From Nitrospirota bacterium (GTDB lineage: Bacteria > Nitrospirota > JACRHJ01): a stretch of 64,000 nt of DNA. Position numbers and translations under genes: made by a program. This document shows positions 11,783 through 27,661 of the stretch, in pieces; the first letter of the stretch is position 1, and every line of letters begins with the position of its first letter. The notes under the pieces are model-generated. The model saw only the letters and a program-made list of their open reading frames with translations, had not been told where the DNA came from and ran no database searches. The stretch lies in NCBI GenBank assembly GCA_963845245.1, contig CAWJRJ010000018.1, positions 1-64,000 of the forward strand. The letters are read 5' to 3'.

Positions 11783-12467
11783 ATGCCCGACTTATCCGTT
11801 TCCGAAAAACCGACCATCCTGATAATCGAAGATTCAATCGACCTGGTCGAGCTATTGAAGCGCCGCTTTGAGTCTGAACATAACCTTTATTACACCCAGG
11901 ACGGCAGCGAGGGCATAAGGCTGTCCAAGGAGCTCAAGCCGGACATAATCCTGCTGGATGTAAACCTGCCGCGCGTTAACGGATTCGATGTATTGAAGGA
12001 GATACGGGTCGCGGACTCGGCGCGGAAGATAGTGGTGCTGATGATAACCGGCCTTTCGGACCCGGACAACATAGTTAAGGCGCTCAGCCTGGGGGCCGAC
12101 GACTATATCATCAAGCCGTTCAACCTGATGGAGTTGTCCGCGCGCATAAAGTCCCACCTTACTATAAAACATCTCCAGAGACAGATTGTAGGCGTGGAGA
12201 GGCTGAATATCCTCCGGGAGGTGGCAGTCAGCTTCAACCACGAAATAAACAACCCGCTCATGTCCATCTCAACTTTTGCATCTTTCCTTAAAAGAGAACT
12301 CGAAGGTTCAAGCGATGAGGCGAAGGAGAGCGTCGAGGGAATACTGGAGGAAGTGGAGCAGGATCGCTGACATAGTAAAGAAGCTTTCCGCGGCGACAAG
12401 GGCCGCCTCTATTGAATATGGCCCCGGAATCAACATGATCGACTTCGAGCACTTGACGGATGATTGA
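11783..12467 (+). CDS. Response-regulator receiver fused to a HisKA (DHp) domain without an ATPase domain; apparent frameshift near 12360
   Basis: The REC domain (ILIIEDS...DIILLDVNLP...GADDYIIKPF) is followed by the H-box SFNHEINNPLMSISTFASFL. The ORF ends at 12467 with no HATPase_c region. Confidence 0.55.
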
Positions 12468-15149
12468 GAAACTGAAATATCCCGGCCGCATACTTATAGC
12501 GGAAGACGAAGACTCTTTAAGAGAGGCACTTGTAGTATTCCTGAAGTCCAGGGGATATGTCACAGCCGAGGCTGCAGACGGTATCACCGCCTTTGAGATG
12601 GCAGGCCTCTCCAGCTATGACCTCCTCATCACTGACCTGAACATGCCGGGGATGTCCGGTGAAGAACTCTTGGACAAGATGGACGAACTTGAATTTGAAC
12701 GGCGTCCTGCGGTAGTGGTGATGACGGGACATAGCACTCTGGACTCCGCGATCAAAGGCATTAATGCCGGGATTAGCGCCTATATCAGGAAGCCGCTTAA
12801 CCTTGTCGAGATAGAAACTTCGATAAAGACGGCCATCGAGAGGCGGAGGCTGGAGAAGGAACTCAGGGGCTATTACAGGGATCTCGACCGCAAGGTGGAG
12901 GAACGCACGCGGGAGCTCTCCCTGATAAACAAGTTCTCGGCCCTGATAAACAGCTCTTTCTCCCTTGAGAAAATACTCGAAGATGCCGTCGAAGACCTTG
13001 TAAAGTCAATGGAAGCCGATGCTGCATGGATATACCTCTCTGAAGGCAAGCCTCCGCTTTACAGGTTGAAGGCGAGCAGGGGTCTTTCAAAAAGTTTCAT
13101 CGGGGCTGCATCATCGATAGACCCAAAGGCCTTTGCCTCCGTTTCCGGCAGGATGGACGGCCCGGCTTCGATGCTTTGCAACGGCCCGCTTCCTCCCGGT
13201 GCCCCTATTTCCGAAGCAGTGCAAGCGGCGGGTTTCACTTCGGCCGTGCATGCCTCCATCCAGTCCGGCAGGCTCCGCATCGGAAGCATGGGAGTGGCGT
13301 CGAAGACCGGTAAACAATTCCAGGAATCCCACCTGCAGCTCATAGCATCCTTCGGAAACCACATCGGCATCGCGATAGAGAAAATAAGGCTTTACCAGAA
13401 AGAGAAGGCAATATCCAAGGACCTTGAGAAGAAGGTCAACCAGCTCCTTGTCATGAACTGGATGGGAAACAGGGCGAGGGTGTCAAAGGGTCTTGAAGAG
13501 ACCGGGAAGATGCTCGTGTCGTCGATAGCCGAAGCGCTCGGCTTTGACAGGGTCTGTCTCTGGGTATTCGACAAGGATGGGCGCACGCTTTACCTCAAGG
13601 CATGCCACGGTTTGGATGCGAGTTTGTATCGCGACTCATGCCGCGTGGACAGTTCTAAAATAACCTCTTTCAGCCTGGACAGGGGAGAGGCTGTGCTGGT
13701 GACAAGCTCGTTCTGTTCCTTCTCGGACGCAAAGGAGATCTTTGGGAGCATCAGGGAGACTGTCGTCGCGCCCCTTGTCGTGCGTAGCGACAAAGGGGGC
13801 GGAACTCAACTGCTGGGAGCATTTCAACTGCGGGCAGAGTTCCTGCAGCGCATACATGAACAGCGGACTCGCCTGCTGGACTCTTACAGAAAGCTGTATG
13901 AAGACGTCCGAAAGGATGAACCTCCTTGACAAGATGGAGGTCTGCAAAAAGTGCGATGTGTACCAGACGAATACGAGCGGCAAGGGGATCGGGCTGATAT
14001 GCGCAGACAACAGCATCGGTGGCAAAGAGATAACCGGCGATGACGTAAAAGTACTGAACGTATTTGCAAACTCTGCCGCGGCCATAATAGAAAACATGAT
14101 GCTGATGGAGAAGCTCCTTGATGACGAGCACTTCATCGACGGCATGATAACCAACATGTCATCCGGCCTGCTTGTGACGGACATTGACGGAAGGGTCAGG
14201 ATCCTGAACAATGCGGGCGCAGAGATATTGAGGACCGAAAGGGAGTCGCTTGAGGGGCAGTTGCTGGCGGACGTCTACCCGGAGGCCGAGGCAATGCTGA
14301 ACATAGTCGGCTCAAAACTCGGCCGCGAAATGGATATTGATGACTCCGGACGGCATGGTGCCTGTCGGTTTTACCAATTCATACCTTGTGGAAAAGGACG
14401 GGACTGACGGCGGCGTCATAGTCGTATTCAAGGACTTGAGCGATATAAGAAAACTTCACGAACAGCTCAGGGAAAGGGAACACTTCTCGGCTATCGGCAA
14501 GGTGGCCGCGGGCGTCGCCCACGAGATACGCAACCCGCTGTTCGGGATAACCTCGGTAGCCCAGATACTCGGGAGGGAGATAAAGGACGATACGCCGCAG
14601 AAGGCGCTTATCGACGCCATGCTCTCAGAGACTTCCAGGCTCAACACCCTTGTAGAGGACATGCTGCTCTACGGCCGTTCAACGAAACTGTCGCCTCAAC
14701 CGGTTGACCTCAACGAACTGATTGAGGGCGTTGTTCGCTTCCACCAGGGCGGTATAACCGAGAAGGGCTTGAAGATACTGAATAATTTTGACAAGGAGCT
14801 GCCCCAGCTAATGCTGGACCAGGGACAGATGAAACAGGTCTTCCTTAACCTTCTTGTCAACGCGGTCGATGCGTCCGTAACGGGCGGCGAAATAATAGTG
14901 AGGACAGGCGTCAAGGGAGAGTCCGCAGTTATAGAGATCGCCGACAACGGGGTGGGTATCCCCGTAGACGACGTCCCTAAGGTGTTCGACCTGTTTTATA
15001 CCACCAAGGAAAAGGGCACCGGGCTCGGGCTCGCCATATGCAGAAAGATTGTCGAGGACCACGGCGGTACCGTTACCATTTCGAGCATGCCCGGGAAGGG
15101 CACATCGATCCGGATAAGACCTACCGTTACAGGCGGCCAGGGTCAGCGG
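12460..15149 (+). CDS. Hybrid sensor histidine kinase: REC-GAF-GAF(with Cys-rich insert)-PAS-HisKA-HATPase; frameshifts near 13797 and 14340; no in-frame stop before the downstream activator
   Basis: N-terminal REC (RILIAEDEDS...DLLITDLNMPGMSG) and two GAF-like regions. The second GAF contains CWEHFNCGQSSCSAYMNSGLACWTLTESCMKTSERMNLLDKMEVCKKCDVYQ. A PAS domain follows, then HisKA (AGVAHEIRNPLFGI) and HATPase (DNGVGIP...GTGLGLAICRKIVEDHGG). Confidence 0.7.
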
Positions 15150-16498
15150 TTGAACAGGACGCTGCTTATCATAGACGACGAAAAGTCTGTCCGCCAGTCT
15201 CTCCGGTATATGTTCAAGAACAAGGGCTACGATATCCATGAGGCCGGCAATGCGGCCGAAGGGGTCGCGGCCGCAAAAGCCGTCCAGCCTGACCTCGCCA
15301 TACTTGACTACAGGCTTCCCGACAAGACAGGCCTCGACGCGCTGGCCGAGTATAAAGGACGCCGCCCCCGACTGCCTTGTCATCATGCTGACCGCTTACG
15401 GGAGCATCCCGGACGCGGTTGTAGCGATGAAAAAAGGCGCCTTCGACTACCTGACCAAACCCGTAGACATCGACATGCTTGAGATAGCCGTGGAAAGGGC
15501 CGCCGGGGTCAGGCTTCTAAAACAGGAAAACGACAACCTGAAAAGCCTGAGCAGGCATGGCCCCGGAAGGGATCATCGGCGAATCGATGGAGGTCCACAA
15601 GCTGCTGCTCATAATAGGGATACTGGCCGAGAACAAGGACACCACCGTCCTCATCGAAGGCGAGTCCGGCACCGGCAAGGAACTGGTCGCAAAGAACATC
15701 CACAATATGAGCGCGCGCAGGGGAAGCCCTTTCGTGGACATCAACTGCGCGTCCCTTTCCGAGAACCTCCTGGAGTCCGAGCTGTTCGGGCACGAAAAAG
15801 GCTCGTTCACGGATGCAAAAGAGGCGAAGAAGGGGCTGGTCGAGATAGCGAACGGCGGCACGCTTTTCCTTGATGAGATAGGCGAGCTTTCGCCTTCCCT
15901 CCAGCCGAAGCTTCTTGAGGGTGCTTGAGACAAAGACGTTCCGCCGGGTAGGGGGGGTCAAGGATATAAAGGTCGACGTCAGGTTCGTGGCTGCCACGAA
16001 CCGCGACCTCGCTGAAGCGGTGGCTGCGAAGCAGTTCAGGGAGGACCTGTACTACCGTCTGCGCGTCATGCCCATCACGATACCCCCGCTGCGCGAAAGG
16101 GGAAAGGATGTACTGGTGCTTGCAAGGCATTTCGTGTCGCTTTTCTCCCGCGGCCTCAAGAAAGATGATCGAGGGGATCTCGCCGGAGTGTGAACCGTTG
16201 CTCCTTTCATATGGCTGGCCGGGCAACATCAGGGAGTTGAAGAACGTCATGGAACGTGCCGTGATCCTTGCCTCCGGCCCGTATATAATGCCTGAACACC
16301 TTGCCCGTGAGCTTACCGACCTCGCGTCTTCCGGCCCGAAGAGCAGGACTGCCGTCCCAAGCCTTGATAGAGATGGAAGCAAAACACATAACAGCGGTAC
16401 TCACAAGCGCCGGCAATAACCACTCTGAGGCCGCAAGGGCGCTAGGCATAAGCCGCACGACCCTCCTGGCAAAGATCAAAAAATTCCGCCTCGACTGA
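15150..16498 (+). CDS. Sigma54-dependent transcriptional activator (NtrC family: REC-AAA+-Fis HTH); about 4 apparent frameshifts; a TTG start is assumed
   Basis: REC ([14 protein letters not shown]...[14 protein letters not shown]), then the AAA+ sigma54-interaction domain ([34 protein letters not shown]), then a C-terminal HTH ([22 protein letters not shown]). It is in the same frame as the upstream kinase, with no stop between them. Confidence 0.7.
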
Positions 16499-16608
16499 CC
16501 CGTTCAATGTAGTGTTTCTGAACAGCCTGCCTGTCCAATTTTTGTACACACAGACACACCGATAATGATCTAAGTATGCATATTGTTGATATATATGTAT
16601 TTTATTTG

Positions 16609-16676: not shown

Positions 16677-17078
16677 ATGGAGATGACAAAAAGGATATTG
16701 ATTGTCGACGACGAGCCGACCATCCTGCTGAGCCTCTCATACTGCCTGAAGAACGAGCATGTTGAGGTGATAACCTCTTCGAGGATCGAGGCGGCGGAGG
16801 AAGCGCTTTCCAGGTACCCATTCGACCTGGTAATCGCGGACATAAGGATGAGCGGGATGTACGGCATCGAGGGGCTTGAGCTTCTAAGCTATGTGAAAAA
16901 GATCAGGCCGGAGACTGCGGTTATAATAATGACCGCATACGGTTCGGACGAGATAAAGGCGGAGGCTCTTAGACGCGGCGCGTTCTGGTATTACGACAAG
17001 CCGCTGAACATAGAGCACCTGTTGGGAAAGGTAAGCGAACTTGGTATCCCCATCTCAGGCATGGCGTCCTTGAGCTGA
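16677..17078 (+). CDS. Single-domain response regulator (CheY-like)
   Basis: REC domain: ILIVDDEPT...DLVIADIRMSGMYG...GAFWYYDKP. Confidence 0.85.
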   Translation: MEMTKRILIVDDEPTILLSLSYCLKNEHVEVITSSRIEAAEEALSRYPFDLVIADIRMSGMYGIEGLELLSYVKKIRPETAVIIMTAYGSDEIKAEALRRGAFWYYDKPLNIEHLLGKVSELGIPISGMASLS

Positions 17079-17107
17079 TTATCAGCTGGCAAATAACAGG
17101 GGGAAAT

Positions 17108-17497
17108 ATGCTAAAGAAGATTCTTATAGTCGACGACTCATCCCTTTTGCACCAGATGTACAAGCTGGTATTCATGCGCTACAAGGGTTGCAAGGTGATC
17201 TCGGCTATGAACGGGCTGGAAGCGCTCGACAAGCTCTCGCAGGAAGACGGTATAGAGCTTGTGCTGCTGGACATAAACATGCCTGTGATGAACGGGCTTC
17301 AGTTCTTGCAGAACATCCAGGAAGACGGCAATTACAAGGGGCTGCCCATCATAATAGTCAGCACCGAGGGGAAGGAAGAGGATACGCTCAGGGGCCTGTC
17401 CATGGGGGCCAGGGGCTACATCAAAAAGCCGTTCCAGCCCGCCGAGCTGCACACGATGATAGAGAAGATCTTTTCCGGCAGCGCCGTCACCGCATAA
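17108..17497 (+). CDS. cheY: Chemotaxis response regulator CheY
   Basis: REC domain of 129 aa (ILIVDDSS...LVLLDINMPVMNG...GARGYIKKPF), immediately upstream of cheA. Confidence 0.85.
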   Translation: MLKKILIVDDSSLLHQMYKLVFMRYKGCKVISAMNGLEALDKLSQEDGIELVLLDINMPVMNGLQFLQNIQEDGNYKGLPIIIVSTEGKEEDTLRGLSMGARGYIKKPFQPAELHTMIEKIFSGSAVTA

Positions 17498-17506
17498 GAG
17501 GCTAAA

Positions 17507-19186
17507 TTGGAAGAATTCGATACTTCCGGTCTTATACAAGAATACATCGACGACGCCAGGGGGCATCTTGAAAAGCTGGACTCTACGCTCCTTGAGATCG
17601 AGAAAGAGTCGGGCCAGGGGTTAGATGTTGAACTTGTCTCAGACCTGTTGGGCGCGCTTCACACCCTGAAGGGAAATTCGGGGATGATGGGTTTTGAGTC
17701 CCTCCAGAAATACGTCCATGAGCTGGAGAGCGTATTCAAATCACTCCTCGAAGGGAAAAACGGGCTGGATGAGGCGTTCCTGCAGACTCTTTTCGAGGCT
17801 GCCGGTTCTATCCGCGAGACCCTTGAACAGATCGAACGAGACCCGAAGTCCCAACCGGACCTCACCGCGCAAAAGCGCGTCCTTGAAGGACTTGCGGCCA
17901 ACGGCACCACGGGCCAGGCAAAGGCCCCAGCCTCGCCGCAGAAGGTAGACAGCTTTAAATACATAGCAGAAAAATCCAACATATTAAAAGTCGACTTCGA
18001 GCGGCTCGACCACCTTCTGAACCTTGCAGGCGAACTCGTGATACACAGGACGAAGCTTTCGCAGGTCGAGAAAAAGTTCAAGGAGCTGAAGGCCGAAAAG
18101 GAACTTGCCGCAGAGCTGACCGAAGCCAACTTCCTTATACAGAAGGCGGTAACAGAACTCCAGGAAGCGATAATGAAGGTCAGGATGCTTCCTGTACGCC
18201 ATGTATTCCAGCGTTTCCCCAGGATGGTCCGGGACCTCGCAAGGGAACGCGGCAAGGAAATCGAGATAATCTTCAAGGGCGAATCCACCGAACTCGACAA
18301 GACGGTCATCGACGAGATAGGCGAACCACTCCTCCACCTTATCAGAAACTCGGTGGACCACGGGATAGAGATGCCCGATGAACGTGTCAGGAAGAACAAG
18401 TCGCCGGTAGGCGAGATCGTGCTTTCCGCGGCCCAGGAAGGAAACAACATAATCATAACGGCGTCCGATAATGGCGCCGGCATCGACGTGGAGTCGGTCA
18501 GGGCCAAGGCCGCCCACATGTATACCGAGGAATCCCTCGAAGGCATGGCGGAGGATAACGTCCTCGACCTGATATTCGAGCCGGGTTTTACCACCGCAAG
18601 CGAAGTTACCCAGATATCCGGACGCGGCGTCGGGCTCGACGTCGTACGAAAGAGCGTATCGAACCTCGGCGGGATCGTGGAGGTTGCAAGCCAGCGTGGC
18701 ACAGGCACTACTTTCACCATCAAGCTTCCGCTCACCCTGGCGATCATATCGGCACTGCTGGTAAAAGGCGGAGACGAACTGTATGCGCTTCCGCTCTCCT
18801 CTGTTATCGAAAGCCTGAGGTTGGAGCCGTCCGAGTTGCAGACCGTGAACAACCGGGAGGTCATAATGCTCAGGGACAGGGTTCTCCCGCTCGTGCGCCT
18901 TTCTGAACTCTTCCACATTGAAAAGGCGCATGACCTGGGCCGCCTTTATGTCGTTGTCGTTGGCAGGGCCGAAAAAAAGGTCGGGCTTGTCGTGGACTCG
19001 CTCATGGGAAGACAGGAGATAGTCATAAAGACGCTTGGCGATTATGTCGGGGAGAACGCCGGGATTGCCGGCGCCACCATACTCGGAGACGGAAGCGTAG
19101 TGCTTATACTTGATGTCGCGGGCCTTATCGAGAAAAACATGCTCAAGGCCGACAGGAGAAGTTCGATATACAAGGAGGTGACGTAG
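17507..19186 (+). CDS. cheA: Chemotaxis histidine kinase CheA (TTG start)
   Basis: Hpt domain (HTLKGNSGMMGF), dimerisation region, HATPase (DNGAGID, GRGVGLDVV), and a C-terminal CheW-like domain. Confidence 0.9.
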   Translation: MEEFDTSGLIQEYIDDARGHLEKLDSTLLEIEKESGQGLDVELVSDLLGALHTLKGNSGMMGFESLQKYVHELESVFKSLLEGKNGLDEAFLQTLFEAAGSIRETLEQIERDPKSQPDLTAQKRVLEGLAANGTTGQAKAPASPQKVDSFKYIAEKSNILKVDFERLDHLLNLAGELVIHRTKLSQVEKKFKELKAEKELAAELTEANFLIQKAVTELQEAIMKVRMLPVRHVFQRFPRMVRDLARERGKEIEIIFKGESTELDKTVIDEIGEPLLHLIRNSVDHGIEMPDERVRKNKSPVGEIVLSAAQEGNNIIITASDNGAGIDVESVRAKAAHMYTEESLEGMAEDNVLDLIFEPGFTTASEVTQISGRGVGLDVVRKSVSNLGGIVEVASQRGTGTTFTIKLPLTLAIISALLVKGGDELYALPLSSVIESLRLEPSELQTVNNREVIMLRDRVLPLVRLSELFHIEKAHDLGRLYVVVVGRAEKKVGLVVDSLMGRQEIVIKTLGDYVGENAGIAGATILGDGSVVLILDVAGLIEKNMLKADRRSSIYKEVT

Positions 19187-19347: not shown

Positions 19348-19779
19348 TTGCACCTTGTAAGCTTCTTGTTGAACAGCGAAGAGTACGCCCTCGATATCTC
19401 GCTGGTCCAGGAGATCATCAAGCTCAGCGGATGGACCAGGGTGCCGAATGCCCCGCGCCACGTAAAGGGCGTCATAAACCTACGCGGGAGAATAATCCCA
19501 GTAGTCGACCCGAAGCTGAAGATGGGGCTCCACGAGTCGCCGCTTGACGGCCGGAATGCCAGGATAATAATAGTCGAGACCGGCGGCCGGGTGATCGGTA
19601 TGGCCGTCGATTCGGTCAACCAGGTACTGAAGCTCCCTGCTGACGTCATAGAGCCCCCGCCGGATACGGTAACAGGGGTGGACGACGGATATATCAAAGG
19701 CGTCGGAAAGCTGTCCGGCAGGATAATAATACTCTTAAACGTTGATAAGGTTTTGGGGAAAGACGAAAAGGCGGCCTGA
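19348..19779 (+). CDS. cheW: Chemotaxis coupling protein CheW (TTG start; the N-terminus may extend upstream via a frameshift)
   Basis: CheW fold motifs: EEYALDISLVQEI, VINLRGRIIPVVD, RIIIV, GMAVDSVNQV. Confidence 0.8.
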   Translation: MHLVSFLLNSEEYALDISLVQEIIKLSGWTRVPNAPRHVKGVINLRGRIIPVVDPKLKMGLHESPLDGRNARIIIVETGGRVIGMAVDSVNQVLKLPADVIEPPPDTVTGVDDGYIKGVGKLSGRIIILLNVDKVLGKDEKAA

Positions 19780-19817: not shown

Positions 19818-22364
19818 ATGTTCAGAAATCTCAAGATAGGCATACGGCTGGCGATGGCTTTCGGCGTTGTTTTGTTGCTCCTGGCGCTGGTGTCCTGGGA
19901 GGGCCTGCACAGCATGGGCATCATGGACACTGCTGCCATGCACATAGTAAAGAAAAATTACGCCAGGGGAGTGGTTCTCGAACATGCAAATGAGAACCTG
20001 AACGAAATGTACCAGTCTCTTTCGGTTATCATGTCAAGCCGCGACAAGGGCGAGCAGCTAAAAAAGGTCAAGGACCTTGAAACGTCCAGGAAAAACTTTA
20101 ATGACGCGATGGACATTTACGAGAAGACCCAGGACCATCAAGAAGGCCTCGATATGCTCGCAAAGTTTAAAGCGGTTTTAAGTGAATCAATAAAGCCCAT
20201 GGACGAAGTGATAAAACTGTCCCTTGCCAACAAGCCTGAAGATGCAAGGCTTCTTTATCTGAATAAAGTCGAGCCGCAGCAGCACGAAGTACGCAATGTG
20301 TTCGACCCGATGGTGGTATTTGAAGAGCAGAGGATAGACTTCCGCTACAAGCAGACGGTAGACGAATACAGAAGCAGTATCAAGATGATGCTGTTGGTCG
20401 GCGGGATAGCCATAGTCCTTGTAGTTATAATGAGCTTCTTCCTGACCAGGGGTATAACCAAACCGCTCGAAGCTGCGCTCAAGGTGGCCAACAAGGTGTC
20501 TGACGGCGACCTCACCGCCTCGATTGCGGTAAGGTCAAAGGACGAGGTCGGGCAGCTGGGCGATGCCATCAACCGTATGGTGGCGGGACTAAAGGAGATG
20601 GTCGGCACCGTCAACCAGAGCGCTGCCCAGGTGGCTGCCGCCGCCGACCAGGTCAACGCAAGCTCCCACCAGATACAGAAGGGCGCTCAGACTCAGGCGA
20701 GCGCGGCTGACGAGACGTCTTCTAGCATGGAAGAGATGGCGGCCTCCATACAGATGGTCGCCCAGAACGCCGGCGACCTCGCCTCGAACGTGGACGAGAC
20801 CTCGGCTTCGATAAACCAGATGGTCGCATCCATCGAGCAGGTCGCCAGGAACTCCGGCGCAATGGCCTCGTCCGTATCCGAGACCTCCGCGACTGTCGAG
20901 CAGATGGCCGCGTCGATAGACCAGGTTGCAAACGATACGGAAAACCTTTCGGCATCCGTGCAGGAGACATCCGCCACCATCGACCAGATGATGGCATCAA
21001 TCGAACAGGTCGCCAGAAACTCAGACATGCTCTCCGGTACCGTGGCCGAGACGTCCTCGACCGTAGAGGAGATGGCCGCGTCTATCAAACAGGTGGCGGG
21101 CAACGTAGCCGAAGCCGGCCGTATATCCCAGAAGGCAGCCGAGGATGCGGTCGCGGGCGGCGAGGCTGTCGAGCTTACCATCGAGGGCATAAACCGCATA
21201 GCCGATACCATGAAGGTGACCTCGGAAGTGATAGGCAGCCTTGGTAGACGCTCTGAAGAGATAGGCAAGATCATAGGCGTGATTGAGGATATAGCAGACC
21301 AGACCAACCTCCTCGCGCTGAACGCGGCGATAGAGGCTGCCAGGGCTGGTGATGCGGGGCGCGGCTTTGCCGTGGTCGCCGATGAGGTGCGGAAACTGGC
21401 TGAGAGGTCTGTCGTAGCCACCAAGGAGATTGGTGAGGTGATAGAGCAGGTGCAGCTTGAGACCTCGAAAGCCGTTAAAACAGCCGAGGTGGGCGCTGCC
21501 GAAACGCTGGAAGGCAAGAAGCTGGCGGACAAGGCTGGGGCGTCCCTGAAGCGTATCCTCGACAGCGTTGGGGCCACGAACCAGATAATGGCGGAGATAA
21601 ACGATGCGGCCGCCGAGCAGTCATCCGCCGCAAACATGGTGCTCAAGTCCGTGGAGAACATGAACCAGGTCACCGACCAGGTTATAACCGCAGTCAAAGA
21701 GCAGGCGATGGGCTCGAACCAGATAAGGAAGGCCGTAGAGACTATGAACCGCACCACCCAGCAGGTAGCAGGCGCCATGAAGGAGCAGGCTATGGGCGGA
21801 AAGCAGATAAGGGTCGCGGTCGAGGACATGAACAGGGTGACGAACGAGGTGAACATAGCCGCCAAGGAACAGGCGCAGGGCACCGTGCAGATAATGAAGG
21901 CGGTCGAGAATATGAACTCGATGACCCAGCAGGTCGCGAACGCCACCTCTGAGCAGAAGCGCGGCGGAGAACTTGTAGTCAAGGCCGTCGAGAACATCTC
22001 GGACATAGCCCGCGAGAACCTCGCTGCCGTGAAGCAGATGACCGCCGCCTCTGAGAACATCACCTTCCAGGCCGAGTCGCTCCAGCGCGCCATAAGCATG
22101 TTCAAGGTGAGTGACTTGAGCTCGGTCCAGGCCTGCTGGGATATCCTGAACTGCGACATGGCAAACCGGATGAAATGCCCGGCCTACAAGAGCCCCGAGA
22201 AGAGGTGCTGGCTGATAGAGGGCACATGGTGCAAGGGCGTCTTGCAGGGCGACGCGAGGAGCAAGCTGGCGAACTGCATGCACTGCAATGCGTTCAAGGT
22301 CATGCAGGGTGTGAGCTCCCTGCCTGCGGCGAACGTCCGCTCGATAGGCAGCGACAGGTCTTAA
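19818..22364 (+). CDS. Methyl-accepting chemotaxis protein with an extended signalling domain and a C-terminal 7-Cys module
   Basis: TM1, a periplasmic 4-helix-bundle-like region, TM2, and HAMP. The MA domain is very long, with tandem 21-aa repeats ([21 protein letters not shown] x4; AxKEQAxGxxQIxKAVExMN x4) and the [14 protein letters not shown] core. The C-terminus reads [54 protein letters not shown]. Confidence 0.9.
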
Positions 22365-22374
22365 GGAGAGCCGG

Positions 22375-23287
22375 ATGACATTAGTGCTGAGCCCCGAGCT
22401 TTTCGGCAAGTTCCAGGAGATCGTGTACGACAGGAGCGACCTGCATTTCGCCCCCTCAAAAAGGGTGTTCTTCGAACGCCGGCTCCGTGAGAACCTCCTG
22501 ACGGACGGGTTTGAGGATTTCGAGTCGTACTACGCGTCCCTTAAAAGCGATACCGACAAACTCGATGTGCTCGTGCAGGACCTGACCACGAACCAGACGT
22601 TTTTCTTCAGGAACCAGGCACAGTTCGAGGCGTTGCGGGACAAGGTATTTCCGGAACTCATCGAGTCGAAGAACCGCGAGGCCATGAGGTCATGGTCGGC
22701 GCCCACCCAGAACCAGAGTCGGGCCATGGGCCTGAAAATATGGAGCGCGGGCTGCTCGACCGGAGAAGAGGCCTACTCGGTCGCGTTCACTCTCCTCGAA
22801 GTGCTCAAATACCCGAGGGCATGGGACGTCAGGATAATCGGCACCGACATAAAGCGCAGCGCCCTGGCTGCCGCCCAGAGAGGGATTTATGAAGGGCCTT
22901 CACTGAAAGAAACCGACCCCGCCCTGGTGGAGAAGTATATGGAAAAGGTCGACGGCGGTTGGGCAGTAAAAGAGCTTCCCAGGAGCCTCGTACGTTTCGG
23001 AGAGGCAAACCTCAAGGCCCTGTCTCTCTGATAGCGGGCCGCTGCCGCATACGGACGGTGCCGGCGGGAAGGACTATTTCGATATAATCTTCTGCCGGAA
23101 CGTCATGATCTATTTCGACCGCGAAGGCCAGCAGAGGCTTGTGGACAACCTGTATGAACGGCTCGCCCCCGGAGGGTATCTTTTTACGGGCGATTCAGAG
23201 CCGCTCCACCTCTTCCGTCACAGCTTTGTCAAGACGGAAGGTACCGATGCGCTCTATTACAGAAAACCGGATCAGGGAGCCATCTAA
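22375..23287 (+). CDS. cheR: Chemotaxis methyltransferase CheR (apparent frameshift near 23035)
   Basis: CheR N-terminal region (FEDFESYYASLKS, TNQTFFFRN) and SAM-binding site (IWSAGCSTGEEAYS). It continues after a frameshift as FCRNVMIYFDREGQQRLVDNLYERLAPGGYLF. Confidence 0.75.
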
Positions 23288-24936
23288 TGGCCGAGGCTTC
23301 TATGGATTTATTCGAACTGATTGGGTCTTCCGACGACTATGTGCGCCTGAAGGCTATAGAACAGGCGGCGCTTGAGCCGGAGGAAAGGTCGGTCCCGCTT
23401 CTTCTCAGGGCGATGCGTGACGGCGACATAAGGTTGCGGAACATGGCACGCGACCTGACGCTCAAGAAGGAACCGGAGACGCTGCTGCCGTACCTTGAGG
23501 CGGCAATGCGTGACGGCAACGACGCGGACCTGAGAAATGCGGCTATGGACATATACGCAGCCCTCTCGTCCCTGGCCGTGCCGGATTTGAACCGCCTTGT
23601 TACGGACGCCGACCCGGAAATAAGGAACTTCGCCTGCGTCCTCCTGGGGAACATCAGGGACATACAGAGCGTGCCAGCCCTGCTTGGCGCATTAAAAGAC
23701 GAAGAAACCAACGTCAAGCACGCGGCTGCGGAGGCCCTCGGCAAAACCGGGGACCCGTCGGCCGTGCCGGGCCTGCTGGAGGCGCTCGCGAGCGAGGCCG
23801 ACTGGTGGAGCGCATTCCCGATCGTTGCGGCATTGGGGGAACTGAAGGACGAAAGGGCGGTCTACCCGCTGTTGAAGCGCCTTGACGACGAACCGCTGAG
23901 GGTCAGCATCGCCATGGCGCTGGGTGACATAGCAAGCCCGTCCGCCCTTGAGACGATGCTGCCGCTTCTGGACGACGAAGATGACGGCGTGAAGACCCAG
24001 GCCCTCCTTGCAGTGGTCAAGATACAGGAACGCACACTTCGCGAGAACCCCTCAGAAGAATCAGAAACGGCACACTGCAGGTTTCTTGAGAAGATCAACA
24101 CATCCTGGTTAAGGCAGCATCTTCTGGACCTTTTGCCGGCATCCGACCCAGAGATCAAAAGGGCCGCACTGGTCGCGCTCGGCTGGTTGAGGGAGAGCAG
24201 GGCGGTCCCGAGGATGATAGACGCCTTGAAGGATGAGCCGCTTTCGGAGTCGGCCCTCGATGCCCTTGTTTCGATAGGCCTGCCTGCATTGAACGACGTG
24301 GAACTAAGCCTGGAGCACCCGGTCGGGATGGTCCGGCAGGCGCTGGTGAGGTACCTCGGCAGCATACGGCTTCCGTTCAGCGGACCGCCGCTCAGGCAGA
24401 TGCTAAAGGACGAACTCAGCATAGTCAGGGCCCAGGCGGCGCTCGCGCTGGGAAACCTCGGGGACATCGACGCCGCGGACGGGCTCATAGAGGCGCTTGG
24501 AGACGTGAACCCGGAGGTGCAGGAGTCCGCGGTCGCGGCGCTCGCAAACCTGAACCCGCAGATAATATGCGGCAAGCTCCTCCCGTACCTTAACGACAAC
24601 AACCAGCGCTATATCTTCCTGGCGGCCGAGGCCCTCGGCCAGCTCGGGCTCGACGAGGCCATAAACCCGCTGTCAACGTTGCTGATGGACGAACGCGACA
24701 TTATCAGGGAGATGGCGGTAAAGTCGATCGGGCTTATAGGCGGGGCCAACTCGGTCGGCCCGCTCTTCACCGGCCTCGGCGACAAAAGCCCCAGGGTGAG
24801 GCAGCAGGCGATCCAATCGCTTGGAAGGGTCAAAGAAAAGCTTGTGCTCAAGAAGCTGATACTTTTGCTGGAGGAACCGGACGACACCGTAAAATATTTC
24901 GCAATCAGGTCCTTGAAACAGTATGGCTCACGCTGA
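23287..24936 (+). CDS. HEAT-repeat (PBS-lyase type) protein
   Basis: At least 12 repeats of the form AxxALGxxGDxxAVPxLxxxLxDExxxVRxxAAxAL. Confidence 0.7.
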   Translation: MAEASMDLFELIGSSDDYVRLKAIEQAALEPEERSVPLLLRAMRDGDIRLRNMARDLTLKKEPETLLPYLEAAMRDGNDADLRNAAMDIYAALSSLAVPDLNRLVTDADPEIRNFACVLLGNIRDIQSVPALLGALKDEETNVKHAAAEALGKTGDPSAVPGLLEALASEADWWSAFPIVAALGELKDERAVYPLLKRLDDEPLRVSIAMALGDIASPSALETMLPLLDDEDDGVKTQALLAVVKIQERTLRENPSEESETAHCRFLEKINTSWLRQHLLDLLPASDPEIKRAALVALGWLRESRAVPRMIDALKDEPLSESALDALVSIGLPALNDVELSLEHPVGMVRQALVRYLGSIRLPFSGPPLRQMLKDELSIVRAQAALALGNLGDIDAADGLIEALGDVNPEVQESAVAALANLNPQIICGKLLPYLNDNNQRYIFLAAEALGQLGLDEAINPLSTLLMDERDIIREMAVKSIGLIGGANSVGPLFTGLGDKSPRVRQQAIQSLGRVKEKLVLKKLILLLEEPDDTVKYFAIRSLKQYGSR

Positions 24937-24939
24937 AGC

Positions 24940-25697
24940 GGCCCGCCCTCTGATAAAGCTCCTGGACGGGGACTCGCCAAAAAACATCAAAGTATGCCGT
25001 CATAGATGCGCTGGGTGTGATCGGAGACAGGGACGCATGCGGGCGGCTTCTGGAGCTGTCCCACTCTAACGACGCCGACCTGGCCATGGTGGCTATCAAG
25101 TCTCTCGGTGAGCTGGGATGTGCCGATGTAAAAGACGACCTCCTGGGCTTTCTGGCCCACGATGACTGGAGCATAAAGGCTGTCGCGGCCGCATCTCTGG
25201 GACGCGTCGGAGGAGAAGGGGTACTGGATGCTCTGGCCTGCCAGCTCAGCTCGCGTGACAGGGTCATCTGCTCAGGAGCTATAAAGGCGTTGGGCGAGCT
25301 GGGAGACCCTGCAGCCTCAAGGTTCCTTGTGCCGCTGCTTGCGGACGCACAGTTTCAGAAACAGGTGCTGGACTCACTTGCATTGCTGGGGCCAGGTTCA
25401 CTGAAAGGGACCATAGAGGCGCTGCGCGACGCACCGCCTGCTCTGCTCCTGAAGGGTATACGCCTGGTGGGCAAGATGAGAGACCCTGAAGGGGTCGATT
25501 ATCTCGCCGGGCTTCTGCGCCACCCAGACCCATCAATAAGAAAAGCCGCTGCTGCTGCCCTCGGCGACTCATGCCTGCGTGAGGCACTGGATGTCCTGGA
25601 CGAAACCGTCATGAACGACGAGGAACCTATAGTAAGGGACGCAGCCGCGTCAGCGGCATCGATCATAAGGAACCAGGAATTTTTAAATGCTAATTAG
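24940..25697 (+). CDS. Second HEAT-repeat protein; frameshifted at the N-terminus and possibly continuous with the previous gene
   Basis: ARPLIKLLDGDSPK...YAVIDALGVIGDRDACGRLLELSHSNDADLAMVAIKSLGELG, then further HEAT repeats up to 25697. Confidence 0.5.
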
Positions 25698-26589
25698 AAC
25701 TTACTCGGACGAACTAAGCGCAAGGGCGGCAGTGCAGCTGCAGCAGGCGGCGCAGGCGCCCCAACTACAGGATTATGAATTCAGGCTTCTGCGTGACTAT
25801 ATCCACCAGTACTGCGGGATATTTTACGACGACGCAAAGTCCTCCACCCTGGCATCCAGGCTGTCCTTCAGGCTGAAGCTGCTGGGAATCAGTTCTTATT
25901 CGGAATATTACAATTATCTCAAATTCAACCCGCGCTCCGAGGAAGAGATAGAGGACCTGATTCCTCACCTGACGAACAACGAAACGTATTTTTTCAGGGA
26001 GATGAACCAGATATCCTTTCTCATAGATGAACTCGCCGGGAAACTGAAGGAAGGCGGACCGGGAAAAAAGACGTTGAAGGTCCTGTCGTGCGGGTGCTCT
26101 TCAGGCGAAGAGGCATTCACCCTCGCCATGCTCCTTGAGGAGGCGGGCGCGTATTCTGCAGGGCACAGCATAGAGATAACCGGCATAGACATTGACAGGA
26201 AGGTCATAGAAAAGGCCGTGAAAGGCGAATATACGAGCTATTCCCTGAGGGCCGCCGAAAAAGAGCGGATAGACCGCTATTTTAAAAGTGAAGGGGACAA
26301 ATACATCCTTGACAGGCGCATAAGGGACCGTGTGACATTCAAGCGGGGAAACCTCCTCGACCCCGCCACGTTCAATTCGTTCCGGGACGTGGACGCGATA
26401 CTTTGCAGAAACGTGTTCATCTATTTCTCGGACGGCGCAATACGGAGCATAGCAGGCTTTTTCCACGGGATAATATCCGGCAAGGGGCAGCTCTTGCTAG
26501 GGCATTCTGAATCGCTTTCGCGCATAACGGACATATTCAGGCCGGTACGTAACCCGAACGTCATAGTCTACACCAAAAAGGATTTTTAA
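25687..26589 (+). CDS. cheR: Second CheR-type chemotaxis methyltransferase
   Basis: NNETYFFRE, VLSCGCSSGEEAFTLAML, ILCRNVFIYF. Confidence 0.8.
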   Translation: MLIRTYSDELSARAAVQLQQAAQAPQLQDYEFRLLRDYIHQYCGIFYDDAKSSTLASRLSFRLKLLGISSYSEYYNYLKFNPRSEEEIEDLIPHLTNNETYFFREMNQISFLIDELAGKLKEGGPGKKTLKVLSCGCSSGEEAFTLAMLLEEAGAYSAGHSIEITGIDIDRKVIEKAVKGEYTSYSLRAAEKERIDRYFKSEGDKYILDRRIRDRVTFKRGNLLDPATFNSFRDVDAILCRNVFIYFSDGAIRSIAGFFHGIISGKGQLLLGHSESLSRITDIFRPVRNPNVIVYTKKDF

Positions 26590-26593
26590 CCTC

Positions 26594-27661
26594 ATGGCCA
26601 AAAAGATACGTGTCCTTGTCGTAGACGATTCCGCGTTTATGAGGAAGGCCCTGGTCAGGATGCTTTCATCAGACCCGTCGATAGAGGTGCTGGATACGGC
26701 ATCCGACGGCGAGGATGGATACCGGAAGACCATGAAACTGAGGCCGGACGTTGTCACGCTGGACGTGCGCATGCCAGGGATGGACGGGATAACCGCACTG
26801 AGAAAGATAATGTCCGACTGTCCCGTTCCGGTAATAATGCTCTCCTCATTGACCAGCGAGGGTGGCGAGGTCACACTCAGGGCCCTTGACATCGGCGCCG
26901 TGGACATCATCGACAAGTCCAAGGCGCATACCGCCATGGATATTCTGGAGATAGCTGGCGAACTGCTTGACAAGGTGAAGGCGGTCGCTGGTGTGGACGT
27001 GGCCAAGATAGCCCGCAGGGCCGTGTCTGTCCCTGAGGCGCACCAGGATCCTTATTCTCCTCCTCTTCACAGCGGGAAGGTCGACATGATAGTGGTGGGT
27101 GCGTCCACGGGCGGCCCGCCCGCGCTCCAGGATATCCTTACAAAGCTTCCTGCGGACCTCCCGGCCGCGATACTGATAGTGCAGCATATGCCGTTGGGGT
27201 TTACCGCATCGCTGGCTGAAAGGCTGAACAGGCTCGCGCCGATTGCGATCTCGGAAGCGTTCGACGGTAACAGGGTAAAGCCCGGCCGGTGCCTGATCGC
27301 GCCATCCGGCCTGCATATGACCATCAGGAAGGACGACGATGGTGTATTTGTGCGCCTGCTGGAGGAGCCAGTGAAGACCCTTCACCGTCCGTCCGTCGAT
27401 ATCCTGATGTCGTCTGCGGCGGAGGTAGTGGGCAGCAGGGCCCTTGGGGTACTGCTCACAGGCATGGGCGCCGACGGGGCCAAGGGGATGAAGGCGTTGC
27501 ATGATGCGGGTGGCAGGACTATAGCGCAGGACGAAGAGAGCTGCGTGGTATACGGGATGCCCAAGGTGGCGGTCGAACTGGGTGGAGTCGACAGGTCTCT
27601 ACCGCTGCGTCAGATACCCACCGCCATTTTGCAGGAGCTCGGCGCCGTGTCGCTCGGCTGA
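26594..27661 (+). CDS. cheB: Chemotaxis methylesterase CheB (REC plus CheB catalytic domain)
   Basis: REC (VLVVDDSAFMRKAL...DVVTLDVRMPGMDG) and methylesterase domain (VVGASTGGPPAL, HMPLGFT, GMGADGAKG, the S-H-D catalytic context). Confidence 0.9.
   Translation: MAKKIRVLVVDDSAFMRKALVRMLSSDPSIEVLDTASDGEDGYRKTMKLRPDVVTLDVRMPGMDGITALRKIMSDCPVPVIMLSSLTSEGGEVTLRALDIGAVDIIDKSKAHTAMDILEIAGELLDKVKAVAGVDVAKIARRAVSVPEAHQDPYSPPLHSGKVDMIVVGASTGGPPALQDILTKLPADLPAAILIVQHMPLGFTASLAERLNRLAPIAISEAFDGNRVKPGRCLIAPSGLHMTIRKDDDGVFVRLLEEPVKTLHRPSVDILMSSAAEVVGSRALGVLLTGMGADGAKGMKALHDAGGRTIAQDEESCVVYGMPKVAVELGGVDRSLPLRQIPTAILQELGAVSLG

Follow-up and report, generated by a model that had tools for sequence, protein, structure and literature searches.

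Two-CW domains in a chemoreceptor and a sensor kinase of one Nitrospirota chemotaxis locus: family membership, architecture and a possible sensory role

Here we describe two cysteine-rich modules encoded in a 64,000-nucleotide stretch of DNA from a Nitrospirota bacterium (contig CAWJRJ010000018.1 of assembly GCA_963845245.1, positions 1 to 64,000 of the forward strand; hereafter the window). One forms the C-terminal part of a methyl-accepting chemotaxis protein (MCP), and the other lies inside a sensor kinase encoded upstream. As judged from their sequences, both segments almost certainly belong to the two-CW domain family (NCBIfam NF045718), a known family that is functionally uncharacterised and to which the window would add one further MCP member and one divergent variant nested in a GAF domain.

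The MCP gene (19818..22364, + strand; assigned from its open reading frame (ORF) and Pfam matches) encodes 848 amino acids and scores 173 bits for MCPsignal, 65 bits for 4HB_MCP_1, and 49 bits for HAMP. The protein thus combines a signalling domain, a HAMP domain, and a ligand-binding domain, and its gene lies within a che operon, flanked by those for CheA, CheW, CheR, and CheB. From the N-terminus, its domains are 4HB_MCP_1 (residues 4-166), a second transmembrane segment (TM2), HAMP (208-259), the MA signalling hairpin (approximately 262-765), the two-CW domain, and a tail of 22 residues, an order that bears out the placing of the module after the MA domain as an extra cytoplasmic element in the sequence-only reading that preceded this work. 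By topology, the module is cytoplasmic. NF045718, a hidden Markov model (HMM) of the family, and the translation all place the domain at residues 772-830 (22131..22307, +), with its seven cysteines spanning 22134-22286. The interval 22134-22295 (+), originally put forward as the module, corresponds to residues 773-826 and translates exactly as first written, as does the kinase segment discussed below. All seven cysteines are in register with the family, and the two Cys-Trp (CW) dipeptides fall in CWDILNC and CWLIEG. The tail ranks among the best-conserved regions of this MCP, with 81% identity to that of an ortholog in a Nitrospirae metagenome-assembled genome (MAG; locus L001), against 60% for the whole protein, and tblastx comparison with a related locus on a metagenome contig (L034) gives 77% identity for the tail and 39% for the periplasmic domain.

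The cytoplasmic hairpin of this MCP (residues ~262-765, window 20600-22110) is itself unusual, comprising approximately 500 residues, or roughly 70 heptads, and it appears to be longer than the usual MCP heptad classes. Both of its arms have a 28-residue (four-heptad) periodicity, with 32% identity at an offset of 28; a scan of the gene for DNA tandem repeats detected none, and the periodicity is found at the protein level only.

The second module belongs to a sensor kinase with the architecture REC-GAF-GAF[two-CW insert]-PAS-HisKA-HATPase_c (12460..15140, +, with the 3' end approximate), as reconstructed in a frame repaired against P0271, an intact metagenomic protein of 892 residues. In the window, the kinase is split over three reading frames (12460..13929, 13742..14407, and 14337 onwards). 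The divergent two-CW module (13811..13963, +; located by translation, NF045718, and the family HMM) reads CWEHFNCGQSSCSAYMNSGLACWTLTESCMKTSERMNLLDKMEVCKKCDVY and resides in ORF 13742..14407. The claim that the kinase at 12460 contains the module is therefore correct for the repaired protein, but the ORF that starts at 12460 is in another frame and ends at 13929. Sequence inspection and comparison with P0271 locate one extra G in a run of five (13795..13799, +), which shifts the frame just 5' of the module, and the same comparison places a second single-base frameshift in the PAS domain (14330..14345, +; repair near 14337). Once repaired, the kinase is colinear with P0271 at 55% identity over 884 columns; because this alignment spans both repair sites, the kinase copy can be taken as real coding sequence. 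At the 3' end of the gene (window 15110-15160), the kinase frame runs on into the receiver domain of the following gene with no in-frame stop, and ORF 14337..15482 reads through both. In L034, the kinase and the NtrC-type gene are separate, with a gap of 8 nucleotides.

While the module is C-terminal in the MCP, as had been proposed, the kinase copy is internal, flanked by VVAPLVVRSDKG and GKGIGLICADN. Excising it restores a full-length GAF match (PF01590, positions 2-133 of 133, 36 bits against a cutoff of 22.4), and on this sequence evidence the second GAF domain of the kinase hosts the module as a nested domain in its beta-hairpin. The same nested arrangement is present in P0271 and in the L034 kinase. 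An insertion of this kind implies that the N- and C-termini of the module lie close together and that it folds independently. All seven cysteines are present in the kinase copy, and its CW dipeptides occur in CWEHFNC and CWTLTE. Members of this kinase subfamily carry the fifth cysteine one residue earlier than the rest of the family (TESC in the window and DSC in P0271, versus GTxC) and lack the GT motif.

The identity of the family was established with profiles. NF045718, named "two-CW domain-containing protein", is a model of the domain type with 80 positions and a cutoff of 35 bits. With the whole MCP it gives 35.7 bits and with the tail alone 40.8 and 41.9 bits, all above the cutoff, and it matches 14 of 14 diverse homologues tested (best E 3e-32). 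Its score on the kinase copy is 27.9 bits (E 2.3e-6), below the curated cutoff, and that copy is best regarded as a divergent member, which seems to belong to the family in spite of its score. The two modules are only 23% identical in BLASTP (E 2e-5), and their relationship consequently rests on profile evidence. A family HMM built from 283 domain copies, the two window copies among them, finds exactly two copies in a six-frame translation of the window, with 78.1 bits for the MCP and 54.7 bits for the kinase, and the next best hit at 8 bits (E 0.17). The view that the two segments are homologous copies of one module is thereby borne out by matches of both to two profiles, whereas the suggestion that the module is undescribed is refuted, since one named family largely covers both segments. 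The order of the seven cysteines is indeed the same in the two copies, but their spacing, which had been said to match as well, is only similar (Cys2-Cys3, 7 in the MCP and 4 in the kinase; Cys4-Cys5, 7 and 6; Cys5-Cys6, 14 and 15).

It could be argued, given the low pairwise identity, the different frame of the kinase copy from the upstream ORF, and its score below the NCBIfam cutoff, that the resemblance is a chance match between cysteine-rich segments or that the kinase segment is out-of-frame noise. This explanation is effectively refuted by the profile scores for the kinase copy given above, by the intact P0271 and L034 kinases, which hold the same module in the same place with all seven cysteines, and by the flanking GAF halves, whose rejoining into a full match backs the reading frame.

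Relative to NF045718, both window copies represent a short variant with the two CW dipeptides and the seven cysteines: they cover model positions 2-78 with approximately 20 positions skipped, and they lack the GREPGG...ELGxC insert of the long variant found in loci L010-L013. The kinase copy differs further in its score below the cutoff, in its shifted Cys5, and in its nesting in a GAF domain. The NF045718 model carries a name only; the searches made found no functional description, Pfam entry, structure, or paper for it. In Pfam, the MCP tail has no match at E<=0.1 or E<=10, and none of the 14 homologues has a significant one. Profile searches of the PDB gave two non-significant matches to sesquiterpene synthases (E ~3) with a two-sequence profile and none at E<=10 with a 14-sequence profile. 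Searches of the accessible literature by domain name, model identifier, and motif retrieved nothing on the two-CW domain, and broader searches on chemoreceptors, Fe-S proteins, and cysteine-rich domains retrieved nothing relevant. A review of Geobacter chemotaxis makes no mention of the module.

The family is large. A single-sequence, word-indexed search with the MCP tail retrieved only a near-identical fragment (P0001) and was too insensitive, hence the use of profiles. A profile of the two window copies, searched against 1.84 billion representatives clustered at 50% identity, matched 1192 representatives at E<=1e-3 and 113 at E<=1e-10, and a word-indexed search with 14 modules returned 758 clusters, the top matches being proteins of ~125 residues that consist of an XRE-type helix-turn-helix (XRE-HTH) and a two-CW domain. 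The modules are approximately 55-80 residues long and share the consensus CW-x4-C, a variable gap, C-P-A-[YW], a second variable gap, CW-x-I-x-G-T-x-C, approximately 14 residues that include a conserved lysine, and C-x2-C-x-[VA]-[FY]. Across the 283 aligned copies, Cys1-4, Cys6, and Cys7 are conserved in 100% and Cys5 in 98%, the two tryptophans in 98-99%, the glycine and threonine before Cys5 in 91% and 98%, the lysine before CxxC in 96%, and the proline after Cys3 in 89%; thus, the seven cysteines, both CW dipeptides, and the terminal CxxC proved to be conserved in relatives, as had been anticipated. No conserved histidine is found in this alignment. The loops vary in length between Cys2 and Cys3, Cys3 and Cys4, and Cys5 and Cys6, and the long variant carries its insert in addition.

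Two-CW modules occur in diverse protein contexts, with 126 copies C-terminal, 71 N-terminal, 22 internal, and 65 in standalone proteins of at most 110 residues, such as P0002 (66 residues). Thirteen of the 271 collected members (P0122, P0123, P0158, P0182, P0195, and others) have two two-CW hits; in eleven of them both copies are full-length, and in the other two the first hit is partial. Tandem copies are frequent, as in P0122 (505 residues), which comprises an MA domain and two tandem two-CW modules with no other domain. Among 108 representatives, the partner domains are MCPsignal (42), HAMP (29), PAS (~22), HATPase_c (16), HisKA (15), GGDEF (10), GAF (5), and HD-GYP (3), and the minimal kinases P0256 and P0180 have no domain other than the kinase core and the two-CW module. 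Almost all of the named sources belong to anaerobic lineages, including a groundwater Nitrospirae MAG, Desulforudis, Omnitrophota, Desulfobulbaceae, Desulfobacterales, Geobacter, Desulfovibrio, Bathyarchaeia, Thermincola potens, and T. ferriacetica; in Thermincola, the MCP (WP_013119044.1 in T. potens, with its tail at residues ~615-684) is built like that of the window, in the order 4HB-HAMP-MA-two-CW.

The genes around the two modules are co-directional (all + strand) and form a conserved locus. Downstream of the kinase lies an NtrC-type sigma-54 activator (REC-AAA-HTH_8; 15150..16560), which is presumably the partner of the kinase; it is broken by frameshifts and was assembled from ORF fragments and by tblastx, being colinear with an intact 451-residue L034 gene. 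The che operon opens with a CheY-like receiver (17095..17469; 82% identity by tblastx to a 130-residue receiver of L034 and 82% nucleotide identity to L001) and continues with CheA (17507..19186; Hpt, H-kinase_dim, HATPase_c, and CheW-like domains in Pfam), CheW (19348..19779; Pfam CheW, 130 bits), and the MCP. The rest of the operon (22375..27661), assigned with Pfam, encodes a first CheR (22375-23287, split at ~23031/23105), a HEAT-repeat protein (23287-25697, split at 24936/25017), a second CheR (25687-26589), and CheB (26594-27661), with intact counterparts in L001 and L034. The HEAT-repeat protein between the two cheR genes is of the PBS-lyase type (~797 residues in relatives) and is conserved in both loci.

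In L034, a 67-kb metagenome contig, the genes are intact, co-directional, and ordered as REC-HisKA, two-CW kinase (887 residues), NtrC-type activator, REC, REC-HD-GYP, CheY, CheA, CheW, two-CW MCP (843 residues), CheR, HEAT protein, CheR, and CheB. Between ~11.8 kb and 27.6 kb, the window is colinear with this contig, which likewise encodes both two-CW copies (85.9 and 49.3 bits). Two further loci (L032 and L033) show the part from the kinase to CheA, and the Nitrospirae MAG locus shows the part from cheY to cheB. The REC-HD-GYP gene that lies between two single-domain receivers in L032, L033, and L034 (L034 5706-7613) is absent from the window (16679-17485).

Single-base frameshifts interrupt the kinase (twice), the NtrC-type regulator, the first CheR, and the HEAT-repeat protein in the window, while their counterparts in L001 and L034 are intact single genes, and at least one of these frameshifts falls in a G5 homopolymer. 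The pattern looks like assembly indel error rather than gene decay. A programmed frameshift in the kinase is unlikely, because breaks also occur in several unrelated genes nearby that have intact orthologs.

Genomic context was also surveyed for the small XRE-HTH regulators that carry a two-CW domain. A metagenome scan confirmed at least 589 relatives of these ~125-residue proteins, and the best 80 loci of these were taken; the flanks were usable for 62 loci, and 52 contained an ORF downstream. In 25 of the 52, a gene for one of five sulfur-related proteins lies co-directionally within three downstream ORFs, namely O-acetylhomoserine sulfhydrylase of the MetY type (TIGR01326, 454 bits), MetX (NF001209, 541 bits), MetW (TIGR02081, 231 bits), CysK (TIGR01139, 456 bits), or the LarE sulfur transferase (TIGR00268, 293 bits). 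In a Desulfobacter locus, the regulator gene is followed by hexapeptide-repeat (cysE-like), PALP (cysK-like), and EamA genes, with nifS/nifU nearby; other neighbourhoods include an AhpC/redoxin-NosL-ABC operon, asd, and polyhydroxyalkanoate (PHA) genes. The HTH-two-CW proteins may regulate sulfur amino-acid biosynthesis in Desulfobacterota, as a class of regulator not described so far. This link to sulfur is suggestive, and to carry it over to the MCP tail would be an extrapolation.

Two further features of these neighbourhoods were observed. In L020, L023, and L024, which are related loci and count as one observation, the HTH-two-CW gene is divergent from an operon for (AhpC/redoxin)-NosL-small protein-FtsX permease-ABC ATPase. 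A tandem-GAF protein (~350 residues), often together with a tandem universal-stress protein, is encoded directly upstream of and co-directionally with HTH-two-CW genes (L087, L097, L101, L102, L105, L108, L111, and L113; L021/L022). No one unifying neighbourhood was found for all small two-CW proteins, the standalone and some HTH forms having varied neighbours.

Several known sensory systems resemble the two-CW domain in part, the nearest in function being metal domains that follow an MA domain (CZB in TlpD and hemerythrin in DcrH). The chemoreceptor zinc-binding (CZB) domain, known from the C-terminus of Helicobacter TlpD and from E. coli DgcZ, forms a bundle of four helices with a 3His/1Cys Zn site; it is cytoplasmic, mediates metal-thiolate redox or oxidant sensing, can follow an MA domain, and also occurs on diguanylate cyclases. 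The two-CW domain, in contrast, has seven cysteines, no conserved histidine, and no Pfam CZB match (the tail has no Pfam match of any kind, as noted above); it is an analogue of CZB and does not belong to that family. Chemoreceptors of the DcrH type in Desulfovibrio carry a C-terminal hemerythrin, a diiron His/carboxylate helical bundle, behind the signalling domain and are thought to sense O2 or redox state. The window MCP would share with them the layout of an anaerobe chemoreceptor with a cytoplasmic metal-centre domain behind the signalling domain, the metal centre being only proposed for two-CW, but there is no sequence relation and the MCP has no Pfam Hemerythrin match. In the Fe-S sensors (the FNR N-terminal cluster, the NreB PAS domain, WhiB-like proteins, and IscR), the presence or oxidation state of a Cys-bound cluster sets the output; these proteins use 3-4 cysteines, other spacings, and other host folds, and what they would share with two-CW is the proposed working principle, no sequence similarity having been detected.

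Ferredoxins of the 2x[4Fe-4S] or 7Fe type are likewise comparable to the two-CW domain in size (~55 residues), in the Cys-Pro step, and in having seven or eight cysteine ligands. The domain was not placed in the Fer4 clan, since CxxCxxCxxxCP is absent and there is no Fer4 match in Pfam, nor among the zinc ribbons or zf-CW domains, since it has one CxxC only and its best Pfam match to a zinc finger, Zn_Tnp_IS91 (in 2 of 14 members), has a non-significant E of 0.065. The original judgement that the module is none of CZB, a zinc ribbon, or a ferredoxin thus stands, as it matches no such Pfam model. The heme-c reading of the CxxC was likewise ruled out, because no histidine follows it and the domain is cytoplasmic.

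Taken together, these observations lead us to propose that the two-CW domain works in the cytoplasm as a self-contained sensory input whose core would be a metal-thiolate centre, probably Fe-S, through which redox or sulfur status is reported, a reading to which we assign a probability of roughly 0.55. The original idea of an Fe-S or Zn site providing a redox or metal input is plausible. A role in sensory input as such is likely: the promiscuous fusion to different outputs, with two-CW as the sole input in some proteins, is the distribution expected of a sensory input module. The nature of the cofactor is a more tentative matter, with Fe-S a plausible candidate at somewhat less than even odds; it is favoured because of the all-cysteine ligation, the Cys-Pro step, the small-ferredoxin size, and the bias towards anaerobes, which in turn favours an O2-labile cofactor. 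A still broader proposal, to which we give about one chance in three or slightly better and which we regard as speculative, is that two-CW is a new-fold Fe-S (or mixed metal-thiolate) sensor of sulfur/redox status in anaerobes that would steer chemotaxis, two-component signalling, cyclic di-GMP turnover, and transcription of methionine/cysteine genes (metY-metX-metW, cysK, and larE) through XRE-HTH proteins, with the cue sensed at the present locus driving both the Che pathway and a sigma-54 regulon.

A possible mechanism can be outlined. Cys1 and Cys2 would combine with the CxxC pair (Cys6 and Cys7) to close one four-cysteine site that draws the termini together, and Cys3-Cys5 would form a second, three-cysteine site; a terminus-clamping site of this kind would explain why the module can be placed at the N-terminus, at the C-terminus, or within a GAF hairpin. 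The cofactor would most probably be iron-sulfur, present as one cluster together with a second site or as a 7Fe-like pair, and its gain, loss, or oxidation, driven by O2/redox state or by the supply of sulfide, cysteine, or iron, would alter the fold of the module. In the MCP, this change might affect how the MA bundle packs at its membrane-proximal end and with it the control of CheA, and in the kinase it might distort the surrounding GAF domain and so modulate autophosphorylation towards the neighbouring NtrC-type activator. A single intracellular cue could in this manner feed both behaviour and transcription from one conserved locus, a shared cue being suggested because both copies co-occur in one conserved locus (L034).

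Several points weigh against this proposal. AlphaFold2 models of the module have a mean predicted local distance difference test (pLDDT) score of 50.3 from a single sequence and 55.9 from a 123-sequence alignment, and provide no geometry to back the proposed sites; a Foldseek search of the better model against the PDB gave one meaningless match (E 7.8). PDB and literature searches found no cofactor, structure, or publication for two-CW. The motif lacks the canonical Fe-S signatures (CxxCxxCxxxCP and Cx3Cx2C), seven ligands are an odd number for two standard clusters, and the conservation is equally well fitted by Zn-Cys sites. The anaerobe bias derives from a few dozen named sources and a pattern-limited genome scan, and the sulfur association concerns the HTH paralogue class and comes from close relatives (52-70% identity) that are phylogenetically non-independent. 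Finally, the kinase copy of the window may be non-functional if its frameshifts are real.

Zinc is accordingly the metal of the nearest competing explanation, in which two-CW is a structural module (e.g., with two Zn sites sharing the seven cysteines) that serves dimerisation or protein docking and senses nothing. All-cysteine ligands, a terminal CxxC knuckle, and a small size are typical of Zn modules, the transposase Zn-binding domain mentioned above, weak and non-significant as it is, is the only Pfam echo, and the XRE-HTH proteins, many of which consist of HTH and two-CW only, need a C-terminal dimerisation element. MCPs and histidine kinases, by contrast, are already obligate dimers that need no extra dimeriser, some kinases and soluble MCPs have no candidate input other than two-CW, and a plain Zn module would leave the near-exclusively anaerobic named sources unexplained. 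The domain moreover has one CxxC knuckle rather than paired knuckles, and AlphaFold2, which is usually confident on Zn fingers, reaches a pLDDT of only 56 with 123 sequences. We therefore consider a purely structural role unlikely.

Somewhat less probable again is a thiol switch, in which free or Zn-bound cysteines would be oxidised or persulfidated by oxidants, polysulfide, or sulfide-derived species with no Fe-S cluster involved. Cysteine-based sensing appended to chemoreceptors and cyclases (CZB) and the persulfide sensors SqrR and CstR provide precedents, the domain is dense in cysteine, and HTH-two-CW regulators adjoin both sulfide-consuming enzymes (MetY, CysK, and LarE) and the AhpC/redoxin-NosL-ABC operon. 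Known thiol switches, however, use 2-4 cysteines, whereas seven invariant cysteines together with two tryptophans and a GT motif point to a fixed, metal-centred fold. The same rigidity tells against a metallothionein-like sensor or buffer of a thiophilic metal ion such as Cu(I), Zn, or Cd, since metallothionein-like proteins lack such strictly conserved aromatic and Gly-Thr positions. This last explanation, for which the all-cysteine composition and two related loci with an HTH-two-CW gene divergent from an operon for NosL (copper chaperone family) and an ABC transporter could be cited, seems improbable to us; the NosL loci are related and partly syntenic and hence not independent evidence, and the commonest neighbours are methionine/cysteine biosynthesis genes, not metal efflux genes.

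The two-CW domain is, in our view, a good experimental target rather than a new discovery. It is found on all major output types, while searches turned up no Pfam entry, structure, or literature for it; should it prove to be a sensor with a cofactor, it would rank among the more widespread of the uncharacterised input modules in anaerobe signalling. For annotation, GAF-nested copies like that of the kinase fall under the NF045718 cutoff and will be missed. Knowledge of the cofactor and the signal would explain what stimulates the dedicated Che pathway of Nitrospirae-like sulfate reducers and their sigma-54 two-component system, and might reveal a missing regulator of methionine/cysteine biosynthesis in Desulfobacterota.

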